Shown: in pieces, positions 28,827 through 59,105 of the stretch | Numbering within the stretch: position 1 is the stretch's first letter | How the letters are laid out: every line of letters begins with the position of its first letter | NCBI GenBank assembly: GCA_964536975.1 | Contig: CAZHYS010000004.1 | Location: forward strand, 10,760-69,864 | Source: an uncultured Gammaproteobacteria bacterium | Lineage (GTDB): Bacteria > Patescibacteriota > Patescibacteriia > 2-01-FULL-39-33 | Direction of reading: 5' to 3' | Length of the DNA: 59,105 nucleotides | Translations under genes and position numbers: made by a program | Notes under the pieces: generated by a model | Seen by the model: the letters and a program-made list of their open reading frames with translations, nothing else | What the model was told of the DNA's origin: nothing | Database searches by the model: none

Positions 28827-29336
28827 TTGATAATGGAAAAAGCGAAAACAGAGAAAACACTGGTTCTTCTTAAGCCGGATGCTGTCCAGCGGGGACTAAT
28901 GGGAGAAATCATCACCCGATTTGAAAAGGCTGGAATGAGGATTTCCGGCATGAAGCTAAAATGGGTTGACGCGGAAAGAGCCGGTCAGCATTATGGCGAA
29001 GACATTGCGCAAAGGAGGGGAGAAAAGGTCAGAAATTTATTGATAAATTTTATCACCTCCGGTCCGGTCCTAGCGATGGTGATAGAGGGCATTGATGTAG
29101 TGGAAAATGTCAGGATGATGTGCGGAACCACTGAGCCGAAGTCCGCGCCGCCCGGGACAATCAGGGGCGATTATTCCCACGTCAGTTATCGTCATGCCGA
29201 TGAAGAAGGCAAGGCAGTAGAGAATATTATCCATGCTTCAGCCACTCCGGAAGAGGCAGAAAAAGAAATTTATTTGTGGTTTAATGAGGATGAAATTTAC
29301 GATTATCACACCGTTTACGAAATTCATACCTTTTAA
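28827..29336 (+). CDS. ndk: Nucleoside diphosphate kinase
   Basis: TLVLLKPDAVQRGL, PGTIRGDY, NIIHAS; the start may be the ATG at 28833. Confidence 0.96.
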   Translation: MIMEKAKTEKTLVLLKPDAVQRGLMGEIITRFEKAGMRISGMKLKWVDAERAGQHYGEDIAQRRGEKVRNLLINFITSGPVLAMVIEGIDVVENVRMMCGTTEPKSAPPGTIRGDYSHVSYRHADEEGKAVENIIHASATPEEAEKEIYLWFNEDEIYDYHTVYEIHTF

Positions 29337-29343
29337 CAAATCA

Positions 29344-29382
29344 AAAAAATTCTCTCCCCGATTATCAGGGAGAGAATTTTTT
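29344..29382. terminator. Bidirectional intrinsic terminator between convergent ndk and rpmB
   Basis: aaaaaattctctccc / gggagagaatttttt, a 15-bp inverted repeat with A- and T-tracts on its flanks. Confidence 0.88.
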
Positions 29383-29557
29383 AGTTCGCTTTTTTGTTTA
29401 GACTTTTGAGGCAGCTGGTGCAGATTCTTTTTCTTTTGCCATCTATAGTTTTGACTTGAAGATTTATTTTTTGCGTTTTTTTGGTCTTCACTTTTGAGTG
29501 GCTGACATTAAAAGATGTTCTGGTGCCGCGGCCGCACACATCGCAGACTTGCGCCAT
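29381..29557 (-). CDS. rpmB: 50S ribosomal protein bL28, Zn-ribbon form, 58 aa (not in ORF track)
   Basis: Hand translation: MAQVCDVCGRGTRTSFNVSHSKVKTKKTQKINLQVKTIDGKRKRICTSCLKSLNKKAN*. Confidence 0.95.
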   Translation of the reverse strand: MAQVCDVCGRGTRTSFNVSHSKVKTKKTQKINLQVKTIDGKRKRICTSCLKSLNKKAN

Positions 29558-29631
29558 ATTGTTTTGATGATTAACTAATTAGAGCTGGCCGGCCGCTACG
29601 CCAATCTTAGCGCCGACCGGTTACAAAAGAA

Positions 29632-29671
29632 ATTTTATCATAATTGCCAAAAAATGTCAATTTGCTATCAT
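29632..29671. promoter_or_regulatory. Overlapping divergent sigma70 promoters (rpmB and M50 protease)
   Basis: Minus: TTGACA (29660-29655), 17 nt, TAAAAT (29637-29632), with TGn. Plus: TTGCCA (29644-29649), 16 nt, TGcTATCAT (29663-29671). Confidence 0.65.
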
Positions 29672-29703
29672 TAATTAGTAGATAATAATCATTATCACAA
29701 ATT

Positions 29704-30333
29704 ATGCCGATTTATTGGGTATTCACTCAACCGATTTTTTTCCTTGTCTGGATCATCGCCGTGGTGGTCGCTCTCACTATCCACGAATTTTCTCATGCCG
29801 CGGCCGCCGCTTATTTCGGTGACAATACCGCCAAACTGATGGGACGCCTTAGCCTCAACCCGATTGTCCATATTGACCCATTGGGATTTTTTATGCTGAT
29901 ATTTCTGGGCCTCGGCTGGGCCAAGCCGGTGCCAGTCAACCCTTACAACTTGAGAAATTCTCGCTTCGCTTCCGGCTTTGTCGCGGCCGCCGGGCCGATT
30001 TCCAATCTCGCGGCAATCATTGTTTTTTCCTTGGGCATCAGATTGCTTACTCCTTTTTTGGGTCCGGAAAACCTCTTGGTCAATTTTTTGTTTATGCTGG
30101 TCTTAGTCAACGCAGTGCTTTTGGCTTTCAATCTTATCCCCATCCCGCCCTTGGACGGTTCCAAGGTGCTGTTTAGCCTTTTGCCGGACAAATTCAATGA
30201 TTTTAAGTATAAATTGTCAGTCAACGGCCCTTGGATATTATTCATGATAATCCTTTTTGATAGTCTGTCCGGTTTGGGCTTATTCGGTCGGCTGTTTGTT
30301 TGGTTTTTCAACTTTTTAACCAAATTTATCTGA
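29704..30333 (+). CDS. Site-2 protease family (peptidase M50) membrane metalloprotease
   Basis: HEFSH (HExxH), GWAKPVPVNP, AGPISN, FNLIPIPPLDG. Confidence 0.94.
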   Translation: MPIYWVFTQPIFFLVWIIAVVVALTIHEFSHAAAAAYFGDNTAKLMGRLSLNPIVHIDPLGFFMLIFLGLGWAKPVPVNPYNLRNSRFASGFVAAAGPISNLAAIIVFSLGIRLLTPFLGPENLLVNFLFMLVLVNAVLLAFNLIPIPPLDGSKVLFSLLPDKFNDFKYKLSVNGPWILFMIILFDSLSGLGLFGRLFVWFFNFLTKFI

Positions 30334-34715: not shown

Positions 34716-35903
34716 ATGGCTGAACAATTTGACAGAAGCAAACCTCATGTAAACGTCGGCACCATTGGCCACGTTGACCATGGCAAAACCACCTTGACGG
34801 CGGCGATTTTGAAAGTGTTGGCCGCCAAAGGCAAAAAGGTGCAGAACAAATCAATTGACCAGATTGACGCTGCCCCGGAAGAAAAAGAGCGCGGTATTAC
34901 TATCGCGACCGCTCATGTTGAGTATGAAACTGACAATCGTCATTATGCTCACGTTGACTGCCCGGGACATGCCGACTACATCAAAAACATGATTACCGGC
35001 GCCGCCCAGATGGACGCCGCTATTCTCGTTGTCGCCGCGACCGACGGCCCGATGCCGCAGACCAGAGAGCACATCTTGCTGGCCCGCCAAGTCGGTGTTC
35101 CGTCAATTATTGTCTTCATCAACAAAGTTGATCAGGTTGACGATCCGTCCTTGATTGATTTGGTGGAAGAAGAAATCCGCGACTTATTGAAGAAGCAGGA
35201 ATTTGACGGCGACAATGCTCCGGTCATCCGCGGTTCAGCTTTGAAAGCATTAGAAGACCCCAGCAGCGAATACGGCGAGGCAGTTATGAAATTGGCCGAA
35301 GCTTTGGACACTTACATTCCGGAGCCGCAGCGGCCGGTTGATCAGCCGTTCTTGATGCCGATTGAAGATATTTTCTCCATTGAAGGCCGTGGCACTGTTG
35401 TCACCGGCAGAATTGAACGAGGCATTATCAAACTCAACGAAGAAGTGGAAATCGTCGGTTTGAAAGATACCCAGAAGACCACTGTTACCGGCATTGAAAT
35501 GTTCAATAAGAATTTGGACGAAGGCCGGGCGGGCGATAACGCCGGCGTTTTGCTCCGCGGCACCAAGAAAGACGAAGTGGAAAGAGGCCAAGTGTTGGCC
35601 AAGCCGGGAACAATCACTCCGCACACCGATTTTGAAGCGGAAGTCTATGTTTTGAGCAAGGAAGAAGGTGGCCGTCATAAACCGTTCTTCAAGGGCTATA
35701 AGCCGCAATTCTATGTCCGGACTACCGACGTGACCGGCGAGATTGAATTGCCGGAAGGCACCGAGATGGTTATGCCTGGCGACACTGTCAACTTGAAAAT
35801 CAAGTTGGGCAAGCCTATTGCCATGGAAGACAAGATGAAATTCGCCATTCGCGAAGGCGGTCACACTGTCGGCGCGGGCGTGGTTACCAAGATTATCAAA
35901 TAA
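34716..35903 (+). CDS. tuf: Elongation factor Tu
   Basis: [34 protein letters not shown]. Confidence 0.99.
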
Positions 35904-35917
35904 GATATAAGTTGGCC

Positions 35918-35959
35918 GGGGATGAGCTGTTTGACGGATTCCATCAATGGCTCATCCCT
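35918..35959 (+). promoter_or_regulatory. Long hairpin between tuf and rpsJ
   Basis: ggggatgagctg...ggctcatccct, an extended stem with G-U pairs and no U-tract. Confidence 0.5.
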
Positions 35960-35993
35960 GTGTCTTGCATAATTTCGTTAATTAAAAATATCA

Positions 35994-36338
35994 ATGGCTA
36001 GTAAAAACACTGCAATCCAGGAAAACGACAAAGCGCATCAGCGGATCCGGATTAAAATCAAGGCTTATGATCACAAGGTGATTGACACCTCTGCCAAAAA
36101 GATCATTGAGACTTGCCAGCGCTTCGGCGCCAAGATTTCCGGACCGATTCCTTTGCCGACCGAAAAGCGGAAATACACGGTCAATCGTTCCACCTTTGTG
36201 CATAAGGACAGTCGCGAACAGTTTGAAATGCGGACGCACAAACGGCTATTGGACATCATTGATCCGGATCCGAAGACGGTTGACGCGCTGATGAGTTTGA
36301 ATCTGCCGGCCGGGGTGAATGTGGAAATTAAAATGTAA
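35994..36338 (+). CDS. rpsJ: 30S ribosomal protein uS10
   Basis: [31 protein letters not shown]. Confidence 0.99.
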
Positions 36339-36343
36339 CTTTA

Positions 36344-36632
36344 CAATTGGGAACCGAAGAGAGCGGCCATGGGTCGACCCCGCCTCTATCTTCGGTTCCT
36401 TCAATTGAGCAAATCTAAGCCGAAAATGGAGAGAGATCCCAGGTTGACAGCAGCGTATTTAGGGGAAAACCTCCACTGGCGGGTTGGGTTTACAAGGAAT
36501 TGACAAATTTTTTAATAAAAACATCTTAAAAATTGAACAGTTTGACGGTCGGTTTTGCCGACGGTTGAATCAATCTGGTTTTTAAGATATGGCCAGATTT
36601 TTTTGTCCTGTTAAATTGTTTAATAGGATAAA
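36344..36632 (+). ncRNA. Candidate structured cis-regulatory RNA (attenuator-like) between rpsJ and rplC
   Basis: 312-nt intergenic region with several long helices and a terminator/antiterminator-like overlap (see findings). No family recognised. Confidence 0.5.
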
Positions 36633-36650
36633 TCAAAAAGTTAAATCAAA

Positions 36651-37397
36651 ATGAAATTCATTTTAGGAAAAAAATTAGCGATGACCCAGTTTTTCAAGGA
36701 CGACGGCAATGTCGTTCCGGTGACGGCTGTCTTGGTTGAGCCGAATGTGGTCACTCAGATAAAGACTGCGGAAAAAGACGGCTACAGCGCCGTTCAGGTT
36801 GGGTTTGGCCGGCCGAAGAATTTGAAGAAGCCGCAGGTTGGCCATTTGAAAGGAATTGCTCAAGTCAAAAAAATGAGAGAATTTACCGTCCCAGCCGAAG
36901 AAATTCGCGAGCTCAAGCGAGGCGATGTTTTGACAGCGGAAATTTTTGCCAAGGGTGATAAGGTCAAGGTCATCGGCGTTTCTAAAGGCAAAGGATTCCA
37001 GGGCGTGGTCAAACGCCACGGTTTCCATGGCAGTCCGGCGACTCACGGCCATAAAGATCAATTGCGCATGCCTGGTTCCATCGGCTCCACTGATCCGGCT
37101 CGTGTCTTTAAGGGGCTTAGGATGCCTGGTCACATGGGCGATCAGCAAGTGACAATCAGCGGCTTGGAAATCGTGGAAGTTGATAATGAAAAAAATGTTT
37201 TATATGTCAAAGGAGCGGTGCCCGGCGCCAGAAACGGAATGTTGCTTATTTCCGGCGCTGGTGAATTAAAGCTGAAAGCCGCCGAGCCGGCTGTTGTCGC
37301 GGAAGCTACTGAAGCCAAAGCGGAAGAAGAAGTCGCGCCGGCTGTTTCGGAAGCGCCAGTGGCGGAAGAAAAAGAAGAAAAAACTGAAAGTAAATAA
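36651..37397 (+). CDS. rplC: 50S ribosomal protein uL3 with acidic C-terminal extension
   Basis: GKKLAMTQ, SKGKGFQGVVKRH, PGSIG, MPGHMG, KGAVPG. Confidence 0.99.
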   Translation: MKFILGKKLAMTQFFKDDGNVVPVTAVLVEPNVVTQIKTAEKDGYSAVQVGFGRPKNLKKPQVGHLKGIAQVKKMREFTVPAEEIRELKRGDVLTAEIFAKGDKVKVIGVSKGKGFQGVVKRHGFHGSPATHGHKDQLRMPGSIGSTDPARVFKGLRMPGHMGDQQVTISGLEIVEVDNEKNVLYVKGAVPGARNGMLLISGAGELKLKAAEPAVVAEATEAKAEEEVAPAVSEAPVAEEKEEKTESK

Positions 37398-37402
37398 TTT
37401 AT

Positions 37403-38074
37403 ATGGTAAAAGTTCCGGTCTACAATTTACAGGGAGAAAAAGCCAAAGAAATCCAGCTTAGCGCCAGATTGTTCGGTCGCGCGGTTAAGCCGGCGGTTGT
37501 TCATCAGGTGGTGGTCGCTCAAGAAGCCAATAGCCGGCAGGTTTTGGCGCACACCAAAGATCGCAGCGAAGTTCGCGGCGGCGGCAAGAAGCCATGGCGC
37601 CAAAAAGGCACCGGCCGCGCTCGGCATGGTTCCAGCCGATCGCCGATTTGGATTGGCGGCGGCGTCACCTTTGGTCCGACCAAAGAACGGAATTTTTCCA
37701 AGCTTGTCAATAAAAAACAAAAGCAAGCGGCGTTAGCGATGTGCTTGTCCGATCGCTTGGCTGATGGCCGATTGGCAATTTTTGAAAAATTAGAAAATAC
37801 TTCCGGCAAAACAAAAGACTTGAACGGCTGGCTCAAGACAGTGCAAGGCAAGGTTCCCGGATTAAAGGAAGCAAAAAAGTTTTTGTTGGTGTCAGACAAT
37901 AAGGATGAGCAGATTATCAAAGCGGTGGCAAATTTGAAAAACGTGATGGTAATAGCCGCTGACAGCTTAAATTGCGTGGATATTTTGAAATATGACACCC
38001 TATTGGCTTCGGCCAAGGCGATTGAAGTGATGGAAAAGCATTATCGGAAGACCAAGGACAAGAAGCAAAAATAA
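37403..38074 (+). CDS. rplD: 50S ribosomal protein uL4
   Basis: TKDRSEVRGGGKKPWRQKGTGRARHGS.RSPIWIGGG. Confidence 0.99.
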   Translation: MVKVPVYNLQGEKAKEIQLSARLFGRAVKPAVVHQVVVAQEANSRQVLAHTKDRSEVRGGGKKPWRQKGTGRARHGSSRSPIWIGGGVTFGPTKERNFSKLVNKKQKQAALAMCLSDRLADGRLAIFEKLENTSGKTKDLNGWLKTVQGKVPGLKEAKKFLLVSDNKDEQIIKAVANLKNVMVIAADSLNCVDILKYDTLLASAKAIEVMEKHYRKTKDKKQK

Positions 38075-59031: not shown

Positions 59032-59105
59032 GCCGTTGTAGCTCAGTCGGTAGAGCGCATCCATGGTAAGGATGAGGTCTCCAGTTCGATCCTGGACAAC
59101 GGCTC
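59032..59105 (+). tRNA. tRNA-Thr(GGT); CCA cut by window edge
   Basis: Acceptor stem gccgttg/caacggc; D-arm gctcagtcggtagagc; anticodon stem catcc/ggatg with loop atGGTaa; T-arm tccag-ttcgatc-ctgga. Confidence 0.97.

Follow-up and report, generated by a model that had tools for sequence, protein, structure and literature searches.

In a 59,105-nucleotide (nt) stretch of DNA from an uncultured Parcubacteria bacterium of wastewater (GenBank assembly GCA_964536975.1, contig CAZHYS010000004.1, positions 10,760 to 69,864 of the forward strand), referred to here as the window, the ribosomal protein genes rpsJ and rplC are separated by a gap of 312 nt. An earlier note on this DNA had reported a structured RNA in the gap, and this observation is confirmed here. 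We propose that the rpsJ-rplC spacer is probably, though by no means certainly, a cis-acting transcription attenuator within a tuf-rpsJ-rplC transcription unit that continues downstream, a reading drawn from the comparison of sequences. The genes around the gap are as follows.

34716-35903, plus strand: tuf, the gene upstream of rpsJ
35994-36338, plus strand: rpsJ, encoding ribosomal protein S10 (NusE), an open reading frame (ORF) with its translation; the gene upstream of the element
36339-36650: the rpsJ-rplC gap, 312 nt
36651-37397, plus strand: rplC, encoding L3, the first gene 3' of the element
37403-38074, plus strand: rplD, directly after rplC

This layout is the one that had been described. 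The rpsJ product of the window is 85% identical to that of a homologous locus, L001 (loci used for comparison are cited by such numbers), and the Pfam domain Ribosomal_S10 was called on homologues. Downstream of rplC, the same strand carries rplD, rplW, rplB and the remaining S10/spc cluster. Other apparent gaps in the cluster are small ribosomal genes (rpmC, rpsQ and rpsN), and the rpsJ-rplC gap is therefore its sole large noncoding spacer. In this genome, rpsJ, rplC and rplD all lack a visible Shine-Dalgarno sequence.

Spacer lengths were compared in a genome set of 80 loci listed by a query with the S10 protein, and relatives were also sought in a metagenome set of 80 loci listed by a query with L3. 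In the 76 listed genome loci that have the pair, rpsJ and rplC lie a median of 34.5 nt apart, with at most 65 nt in 62 of them, in agreement with the earlier statement that the two genes usually lie only tens of nucleotides apart. Gaps longer than 110 nt occur in eight of these 76 loci, and all eight have a hairpin and a U-run within 120 nt of rplC. By their titles, four of the eight belong to the candidate phyla radiation (Portnoybacteria, Saccharibacteria, Parcubacteria and Campbellbacteria), and the remaining four bear automatic labels of a different kind, such as Gammaproteobacteria and Bdellovibrionales. The closest named relatives of the window by L3 are Candidatus Buchananbacteria and Falkowbacteria, and the DNA sequencing runs that contain the sequence are wastewater, bioreactor and farm metagenomes. 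In all 13 distinct relatives of this Buchananbacteria/Falkowbacteria-like kind (L3 63-77% identical), a large gap of 193-755 nt is kept.

The plus strand of the gap folds with a minimum free energy (MFE) of -103.9 kcal/mol, compared with -73.7 +/- 5.1 kcal/mol for dinucleotide shuffles (z = -5.9); none of 100 shuffles folded as well. An RNA from the minus strand was considered and rejected: its fold is weaker (z of only -2.9), and G.U pairs would become A-C mismatches. The G.U pairs in the stems called P0, AT and T below, as well as the U-tract, fit the plus strand only. All four hairpins that the earlier note had drawn in the gap exist, but the outer two are lineage-specific extras and not conserved parts. 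The conserved parts are two modules, M1 and M2, of which the first is composed as follows.

36409-36501, plus strand: M1, a conserved structured domain and putative effector-binding site, defined by the covariance model (CM) R1, covariation and MFE folds
36411-18/36484-91, plus strand: P0, the outer stem of M1
36419-21/36481-83, plus strand: P0b, a short stem of M1
36426-31/36471-76, plus strand: P1, a helix of M1 (AUGGAG/CUCCAY)
36432-36 opposite 36467-70, plus strand: the 5x4 internal loop of M1 (AGAGA opposite AAAC; AnAGA/AAAC across relatives)
36437-40/36463-66, plus strand: P2, UCCN/NGGA, with a variable apex
36492-99, plus strand: the single-stranded tail of M1 after P0, ACAAGGAA, a purine tract A-Y-A-A-G-G-A-A

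No other part of the gap is as conserved or covaries as well as M1, which had been overlooked in the earlier note. Its core is near-invariant (UGGAG-AnAGA-UCC...GGA-AAAC-CUCCA) and is enclosed by P0. The same architecture was recovered independently by single-sequence MFE folds of 12 homologues, and RNAalifold predicts the same P0, P1 and P2. A plain MAFFT alignment of 10 sequences has paired bases in 88% of its cells and two-sided changes in 10 pairs, and its covariation score is reached by none of 500 shuffles; when partners are slid by one column, pairing falls to 48-61%. The covariance model R1, built from this alignment, scores 81.9 bits (E = 5e-15) on the M1 of the window, its sole match in the 59-kb stretch, and finds L177 and L178, which were not in its seed, at E of about 1e-11. 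The resulting CM alignment of 14 sequences has 89.7% paired cells and covariation at 13 of 21 pairs. Compensatory changes are found in all eight pairs of P0, whereas P1 has one (UGAAG/CUUCA in L177), and the fourth pair of P2 occurs as CG, UA, GC and UG. A nearly invariant P1, loop and P2 base with a freely varying P0 is the pattern of a putative recognition surface on a scaffold. The apex of P2 holds an insertion of 250 nt in L170.

Model R1, like the model R2 of the switch described below, matches every relative once, inside the rpsJ-rplC gap. Beyond family members, R1 finds nothing at E <= 10 on either strand of about 715 kb of other loci, and a scan of viral contigs for the M1 core listed no matches. 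Several identities for M1 were examined and rejected. Signal recognition particle RNA, RNase P RNA and 6S RNA are ruled out by size and by the absence of Rfam matches, and by inspection neither a K-turn nor a loop E fits the internal loop. The idea that the P0 strands act as decoys of the terminator strands fails for L001, L167, L177 and L178.

The second module follows M1 after a linker.

36500-36522, plus strand: A/U-rich linker that joins M1 to the switch; in relatives its length is about 2 to 45 nt
36518-36604, plus strand: M2, the switch (helices A and B), defined by CM R2
36523-36588, plus strand: AT, a putative antiterminator hairpin, from MFE folds, shuffles and CM R2
36523-32/36579-88, plus strand: helix A of AT, extended by ATTGA (36531-35)/TCAAT (36570-74)
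about 36540-36569, plus strand: P3, a variable GC-rich hairpin inside AT, unrelated in sequence between lineages
36572-36604, plus strand: T, a predicted intrinsic terminator, with helix B AATCTGG (36572-78)/CCAGATT (36593-99) and two further U.G pairs possible
36598-36604, plus strand: the U-tract of T, U7 in the window

Both helices lie where the earlier note had placed them. The strands of helix A, atcttaaaaa and tttttaagat, are complementary at 10 of 10 positions and enclose a gtcgg (36548-52)/ccgac (36558-62) hairpin; helix B runs into the T-run, and the 3' strand of helix A forms its loop. The note had read the two helices as an antiterminator/terminator switch or a pseudoknot. The switch is supported by the conservation and competition of AT and T. 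A simultaneous pseudoknot is not, since only 4 nt would be available to bridge a 10-bp helix, and we infer that A and B exclude each other.

Each of the 13 distinct sequences forms all seven pairs of the T stem, among them G.U alternatives and one double change. RNAalifold makes the stem 9 bp long, and 6-8 U follow helix B directly in every sequence. The T hairpin alone has a predicted stability of -8 to -15.6 kcal/mol. The gap holds two parts of a generic effector-controlled attenuator: a G+C-containing hairpin followed by a U-tract upstream of a gene and a conserved alternative structure that excludes it. Conservation of the latter was assessed by per-sequence folds, shuffle z-scores and duplex shuffles. 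When the 3' strand of the terminator is withheld, AT is the MFE structure in 13 of 13 sequences; its z-scores range from -3.7 to -7.8 in 10 of the 11 sequences tested. AT is more stable than the best terminator-enforced fold by 0.3-10.8 kcal/mol in 11 of 13 sequences; for the window, the AT fold has an MFE of -25.3 kcal/mol (z = -5.07) and the terminator-forced fold -14.5 kcal/mol.

In its 5' strand, AT is a wobble copy of the 3' strand of T, extended into the T loop. In 9-10 of 13 sequences, AT has an inner helix as well, in which UUAGAUU pairs with AAUCUGG, the T 5' strand, with the help of two G.U pairs; in the window, L161 and L166 this helix is shifted to AUUGA/UCAAU with the same effect. 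This amends the earlier reading, in that the antiterminator of most relatives pairs with the terminator 5' strand as well and is a classical competitor. Complementarity between the T loop and upstream sequence has composition-preserving shuffle p values of 0.001-0.064 in nine of 13 sequences and is not significant in four (p = 0.13-0.72). Helix A has changed on both strands yet remains complementary in L164 (AUUUAAAAA/UUUUUAAAU), L168 (CUAAAAA/UUUUUAG), L170 (an A-U to U-A flip plus wobbles) and L081 (AUAC..UUAAG/CUUAAGGUAU). Model R2 scores 84.3 bits on the switch of the window, and its matches beyond the family are three weak ones (E = 0.06-0.6).

The position of T bears on how rplC is transcribed. 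From the end of the U-run to the rplC ATG there are 9-23 nt in L161, L164, L166 and L168, with no more than 9-15 nt in several relatives, and 46 nt in the window. In L168, M1 begins about 10 nt after the rpsJ stop codon. A scan of the window gap found no sigma70-type promoter, and scanning and inspection of the homologues found no consistently spaced sigma70-type promoter in the linker. Because of the short distance from U-run to ATG, in which no promoter fits, rplC and the essential genes after it must be transcribed from upstream through the terminator, and to judge by these sequences the conserved AT is the device that permits read-through. A promoter between M1 and AT was considered and rejected: the conserved TTGAYNGAYAAGGA (TTGAY..AAGGA) that might suggest one consists of the 3' strand of P0 and the purine tract, and no -10-like hexamer keeps a constant spacing to it.

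Two more distant loci, with L3 proteins 56-57% identical to that of the window, are probable variants of the element rather than proven members. In L036, a promoter of canonical form, TTGACA-17-TACACT (L036:2845-2875), is followed by an M1-like motif, CAGAU-AAGA-UCCC...GGGA-AAAC-AUCUG, with a fully compensated P1, and then by a strong terminator. L082 has the M1-like motif UCAAAU-AAGA-UUC...GAA-AAAC-AUUUGA, and by inspection its antiterminator GCAAAUUAGAUA pairs with UAUCUGGUUUGU of its terminator. Model scores are weak (R1 on L036, 15.6 bits, E about 1; R2 on L082, 25.5 bits, E = 0.01).

We picture termination, its regulation, an effector and a coupling between M1 and the switch as follows. 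A polymerase arriving from rpsJ would make M1 first and then the switch. By default AT (helix A, the inner helix and P3) would form, tying up the terminator loop and, in most relatives, also the terminator 5' strand, and transcription would go on to rplC, rplD and the other ribosomal genes of the cluster. With a trans-acting factor in excess, the AT 5' strand, which would be exposed while about 50 nt of P3 are transcribed, would be kept from pairing; the AAUCUGG/CCAGAUU hairpin with its U-tract would then form, and transcription would stop after rpsJ. A protein on the M1 loop and AAGGA might extend over or capture the AT 5' strand, with the more G-C-rich terminator winning; alternatively, a pause mechanism of the L4/NusA type might operate, as in E. 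coli (PMC3616713). EF-Tu and S10/NusE would be made independently of L3 onward. By analogy, the most likely effector would be a ribosomal protein encoded downstream that binds M1 and the AAGGA tract. We favor L4, because it offers the sole precedent for the gene block from rplC onward; L3, L23 and L2 would be possible. The AT 5' strand lies only 2-8 nt from the AAGGA tract in L164 and L168, and in other relatives the longer linker can form a small hairpin of its own.

Several results weigh against this attenuator. The MFE fold of the full leader has M1 and AT side by side with no shared nucleotides in 12 of 12 leaders, neither M1 nor the linker offers the AT 5' strand an alternative partner above chance level, and so no effector-binding structure that overlaps or competes with the antiterminator was found. 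A linker U-run that could serve as anti-antiterminator in the window is absent from L164, L168 and L176 and was rejected. Since the default fold of M1 plus AT is one of read-through, termination would require that AT be prevented, and since M1 and AT share nothing and AT has no upstream partner, coupling would probably be mediated by a protein and not by an RNA relay. The T loop, of 10-14 nt, is unusually long, and a simple terminator scan did not call T. AT is weak in L178 (z = -1.6), and the terminator is already the MFE structure in L168 and L178. The formal covariation test of helix A was not significant on a sequence-driven alignment, because indels misalign four rows in the MAFFT and CM alignments; the covariation check that had been proposed nevertheless did not refute the switch, since compensatory changes do occur in the structure. 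Independent lineages number only about 10-11; L161, L162 and L163 are near-duplicates. Two metatranscriptomes of a study in which the organism occurs did not cover it and gave only cross-mapping of conserved tuf segments. Scans of E. coli rrnH ribosomal RNA (rRNA), which is not the lineage's own, with R1 and the loop motif gave noise only; the look-alikes GAGAUUCCCC and GGGGAAACC that surfaced in 23S rRNA presumably lie in separate local hairpins.

Alternatively, the spacer could be unregulated punctuation, that is, a leaky terminator that fixes the ratio of S10/EF-Tu to L3-onward messenger RNA, with hairpin 1 (the stem directly after rpsJ), M1 and AT protecting 3' ends or guiding RNases and nothing being sensed. 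Points in its favor are that M1 and AT do not overlap, that no anti-antiterminator is detectable, and that hairpins 1 and 4 (the latter just before rplC) come and go. Also, the eight gaps longer than 110 nt all have a hairpin and U-run behind differing upstream sequences, which suggests that separating rpsJ from rplC is a general habit of these lineages. However, a passive terminator needs neither a conserved, more stable AT with a wobble-copy 5' strand nor a near-invariant 25-nt internal-loop motif on a covarying stem. The competing AT and the near-invariant motif are each a hallmark of effector-controlled leaders, and we consider mere punctuation unlikely. The invariant position and orientation of the element argue against another possibility, namely a free-standing small RNA gene of about 190 nt, extending from M1 through the terminator, that is merely syntenic and acts in trans or as a ribonucleoprotein component. 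The promoter of L036 just upstream of its M1-like motif, with a strong terminator at the end, and the compact, protein-binding-like fold of M1 are what such a gene might look like, but M1 lies within about 10 nt of the rpsJ stop in L168, no promoter is evident in core members, the terminator 9-23 nt from the rplC ATG means that rplC needs read-through, and a conserved antiterminator is sensible only for a cis-acting leader. We regard this explanation as highly improbable. Even less probable, to the point of being barely credible, is a leader peptide, in which the AUG of P1 (36426) would open a short ORF, Met-Glu-Lys/Arg-Asp-Pro, whose translation controls the switch. An AUG or GUG at the same place and conservation of the first five codons in 13 sequences speak for it, and the missing Shine-Dalgarno sequence is uninformative in a genome where rpsJ, rplC and rplD have none either. 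But the ORF is 6-34 codons long, its stops being scattered between P2 and the AT strand, and the 3' block GGAAAACCUCCA, although just as conserved, falls into three different reading frames. In addition, the Pro codon has a third base that covaries with the P2 partner (CG/UA/GC/UG), a Glu-to-Lys change in L177 is compensated on the opposite strand, and L036 and L082 have no AUG. A small coding ORF was also rejected on its own account: frame and length are not conserved, and covariation at codon positions is at the level of RNA. In the window, the ORF from the P1 AUG occupies 36426-36503 (MERDPRLTAAYLGENLHWRVGFTRN), and in core relatives it begins M-E/K-K/R/I-D/V-P.

A different kind of effector is conceivable. 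These organisms have few protein regulators, and M1 might be the aptamer of a metabolite or ion riboswitch (for example, for an alarmone, a polyamine or Mg2+) that tunes ribosomal protein transcription to physiology through the AT/T platform. The layout, a conserved core followed by a terminator/antiterminator platform, is aptamer-like, and no known family was matched. Nevertheless, a single internal loop with two short helices is a small core for a ligand pocket, the P2 apex tolerates the 250-nt insertion of L170, and, within the window and the other loci retrieved, the element is confined to the place before rplC. Moreover, aptamer and platform share no nucleotides, unlike those of nearly all riboswitches, and ribosomal proteins are the classical effectors of leaders that precede ribosomal protein genes (PMC3616713, PMC7247131). 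We think a riboswitch very unlikely. An equally small chance is given to a site for Nus factors (NusB-S10), in which the BoxA-like 5' strand of helix A and its hairpin would block AT, as feedback, or make polymerase resistant to the terminator. In the window, ATCTTAAAAATT (36523-34) agrees with the boxA plus spacer of lambda nutL, CTCTTAAAAATT, at 11 of 12 positions, a hairpin follows as in nutL, the adjacent upstream gene encodes NusE (S10), and the helix A 5' strand is unpaired during P3 transcription; for other bacteria, BoxA elements adjacent to rpsJ have been suggested (PMC5725501). The match to the gamma-proteobacterial consensus GYTCTTTAANA (PMC5725501) covers only seven of 10 specified positions, and the BoxA of the host may differ from it. 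A match to an A/U-rich 11-mer is subject to a large look-elsewhere effect, and this one is not conserved among relatives: the critical C4 and UCUU core are lost in L164 (AUUUAAAAA), L168 (ACUAAAAA) and L081. In these three loci the 3' partner changes along, and pairing rather than protein recognition is therefore the visible constraint. It is likewise quite unlikely that the RNA belongs to a previously undescribed Patescibacteria class that divides the S10 operon, with M1 and AAGGA as a sensor that needs no RNA overlap because the protein bound to it captures the transiently unpaired, BoxA/nutL-like AT 5' strand. In the most surprising form of this idea, the protein would be S10/NusE, with NusB, and free S10 would be gauged to decide polymerase entry into L3-L4-L23-L2 and beyond.

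Beside the two modules, the gap of the window contains two optional hairpins.

36344-36407, plus strand: hairpin 1, a long stem right after the rpsJ stop, without a U-run after it
36602-36632, plus strand: hairpin 4, between terminator and rplC start, lineage-specific

The position given earlier for hairpin 1 was right: caattg plus ggaaccgaaga (36344-60) pairs with tcttcggttcc plus caattg (36389-407), and an inverted-repeat search found arms at 36350-67/36382-99 of 18 nt and 89% complementarity. Its stem base is kept in L161, L166, L170, L172 and L001, with apical inserts of 60-400 nt, and the hairpin is absent from L167, L168, L177 and L178. Hairpin 4, also drawn in the earlier note, is present in the MFE fold of the window and absent from L161, L164, L166, L167, L168, L176, L177 and L178; at its place L081 and L172 have unrelated long repeat-built hairpins.

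Leader helices of some relatives carry inserts, of about 250 nt in P2 (L170/L171; L170:1160-1410) and about 400 nt in hairpin 1 (L172-L175). The hairpin-1 inserts at L170:1001-1130 and L172:850-960 share a block, GGAGAGAGAnCUCGCC...CUAUACGCUACGGCGAAGCGUGUGAACAG...GUUCUCUCUCC, that has no Rfam match. In some relatives the leader is flanked by long hairpins of short TACGAAT/TACAAAT-type repeats (L081:1120-1190 and 1385-1495; L172:746-825 and 1405-1480; L176:1195-1270), which look like a family of palindromic intergenic repeats.

Other rpsJ-rplC junctions showed further features. The gap of L051 contains a TTGACA-17-TATAAT promoter (L051:2935-2965), followed by a terminator hairpin before rplC. 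A different conserved hairpin, CCGGCAGUGCGG-N6-9-CCGCAUGAUGAGGUGAGGA-N4-AUG, occupies the last 60 or so nt before rplC in GC-rich metagenome loci whose L3 is about 50% identical (L091, L097, L101-L103, L105, L106, L109-L111, L115, L118, L121 and L122). It may be a separate translational operator for rplC, and nine loci with this motif gave no Rfam match. In L014, L024, L032 and L038, which have candidate-phyla titles, no rplC is detectable in the downstream flank of rpsJ (about 130 to 2,500 nt), and where this flank is complete the rpsJ-rplC junction may mark a break in the S10 cluster. Elsewhere in the window, the 90-nt tuf-rpsJ spacer (35904-35993) contains one simple hairpin, GGGGATGAGC...GCTCATCCC (about 35920-35958), without a clear U-run, and at the start of a 368-nt noncoding gap (29336-29704), TCTCTCCCCGATTATCAGGGAGAGA and a T-run at about 29351-29382 make up a strong hairpin of the terminator type.

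If the attenuator reading holds, a lineage of the candidate phyla radiation would have its own answer to the old problem of keeping ribosomal proteins in balance with rRNA. In this radiation genomes are tiny, regulators few and ribosomes unusual, and almost nothing is known about gene regulation. The element would occupy a new place in the most conserved bacterial gene cluster, after rpsJ and not before it, and this placement would uncouple EF-Tu and S10/NusE from the other S10/spc genes. The switch design is uncommon in that the AT 5' strand wobble-copies the T 3' strand and reaches into the T loop. With a sensor of about 95 nt and a switch of about 85 nt, the RNA is well defined and its putative protein partner is testable, and models R1 and R2 could be used to annotate the element across Patescibacteria. 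No new principle would be involved, as attenuator-type ribosomal leaders are known and new ones are found regularly.

The earlier note had been able to assign the RNA to no known family, and searches of Rfam 15 over the window and 29 related loci leave it so. In the window, only a tRNA at 59032 reaches its gathering threshold; in the gap, hits at E <= 10 are noise (the best, SNORA75, has 25 bits against a threshold of 80), and 20 homologous or other large-gap loci gave no match. In full-text literature searches, no leader preceding rplC was found described for Parcubacteria or Patescibacteria.

Among known systems, the S10 operon of E. coli is attenuated by L4 through a leader, the L4-interacting RNA, that is confined to Gammaproteobacteria (PMC3616713). 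The candidate described here would resemble it in acting on the same block (rplC, rplD, rplW, rplB and onward) by premature termination at a hairpin plus U-run in messenger RNA, and in having a conserved hairpin upstream of the terminator with variable, dispensable hairpins beside it (PMC3616713). However, the E. coli leader lies in the 5' untranslated region of rpsJ, its last hairpin overlaps the S10 start, and it also represses S10 translation, whereas the element here is downstream of rpsJ, and S10/NusE would escape control. The E. coli architecture consists of HD-HE-HG, with a conserved HD loop and with HE lacking an antiterminator (PMC3616713), and it relies on an L4-prolonged, NusA-dependent pause; here, P0, P1, the loop and P2 are followed by a stable AT that competes with T. 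Sequence or structure similarity between the two was not detectable. The B. subtilis infC-rpmI-rplT leader, driven by L20, shares with our element a mutually exclusive antiterminator and intrinsic terminator and a structured protein-binding site (PMC1865079). Its binding structure competes directly with the antiterminator, unlike M1, which shares no nucleotides with AT, and its ligand, fold and operon differ. The L4-Archaeoglobi candidate (Eckert & Weinberg 2020) is similarly located, directly upstream of rplC-rplD-rplW-rplB, and L4 was likewise proposed by analogy (PMC7247131), but it is archaeal, has a different motif, was rated uncertain by its authors, and was described with no terminator switch. 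The likeness to lambda nut and rrn BoxA sites (the 11 of 12 match at 36523-34, the hairpin after it and the adjacent NusE gene) is a lead and not membership, as the core here is not conserved and covaries with its pairing partner. Moreover, the main action of Nus complexes is against Rho, and an N-like factor is not known here. The element lacks defining features of each of these nearest systems but would work like them, and it is best regarded as a new ribosomal-leader candidate of a known functional kind.

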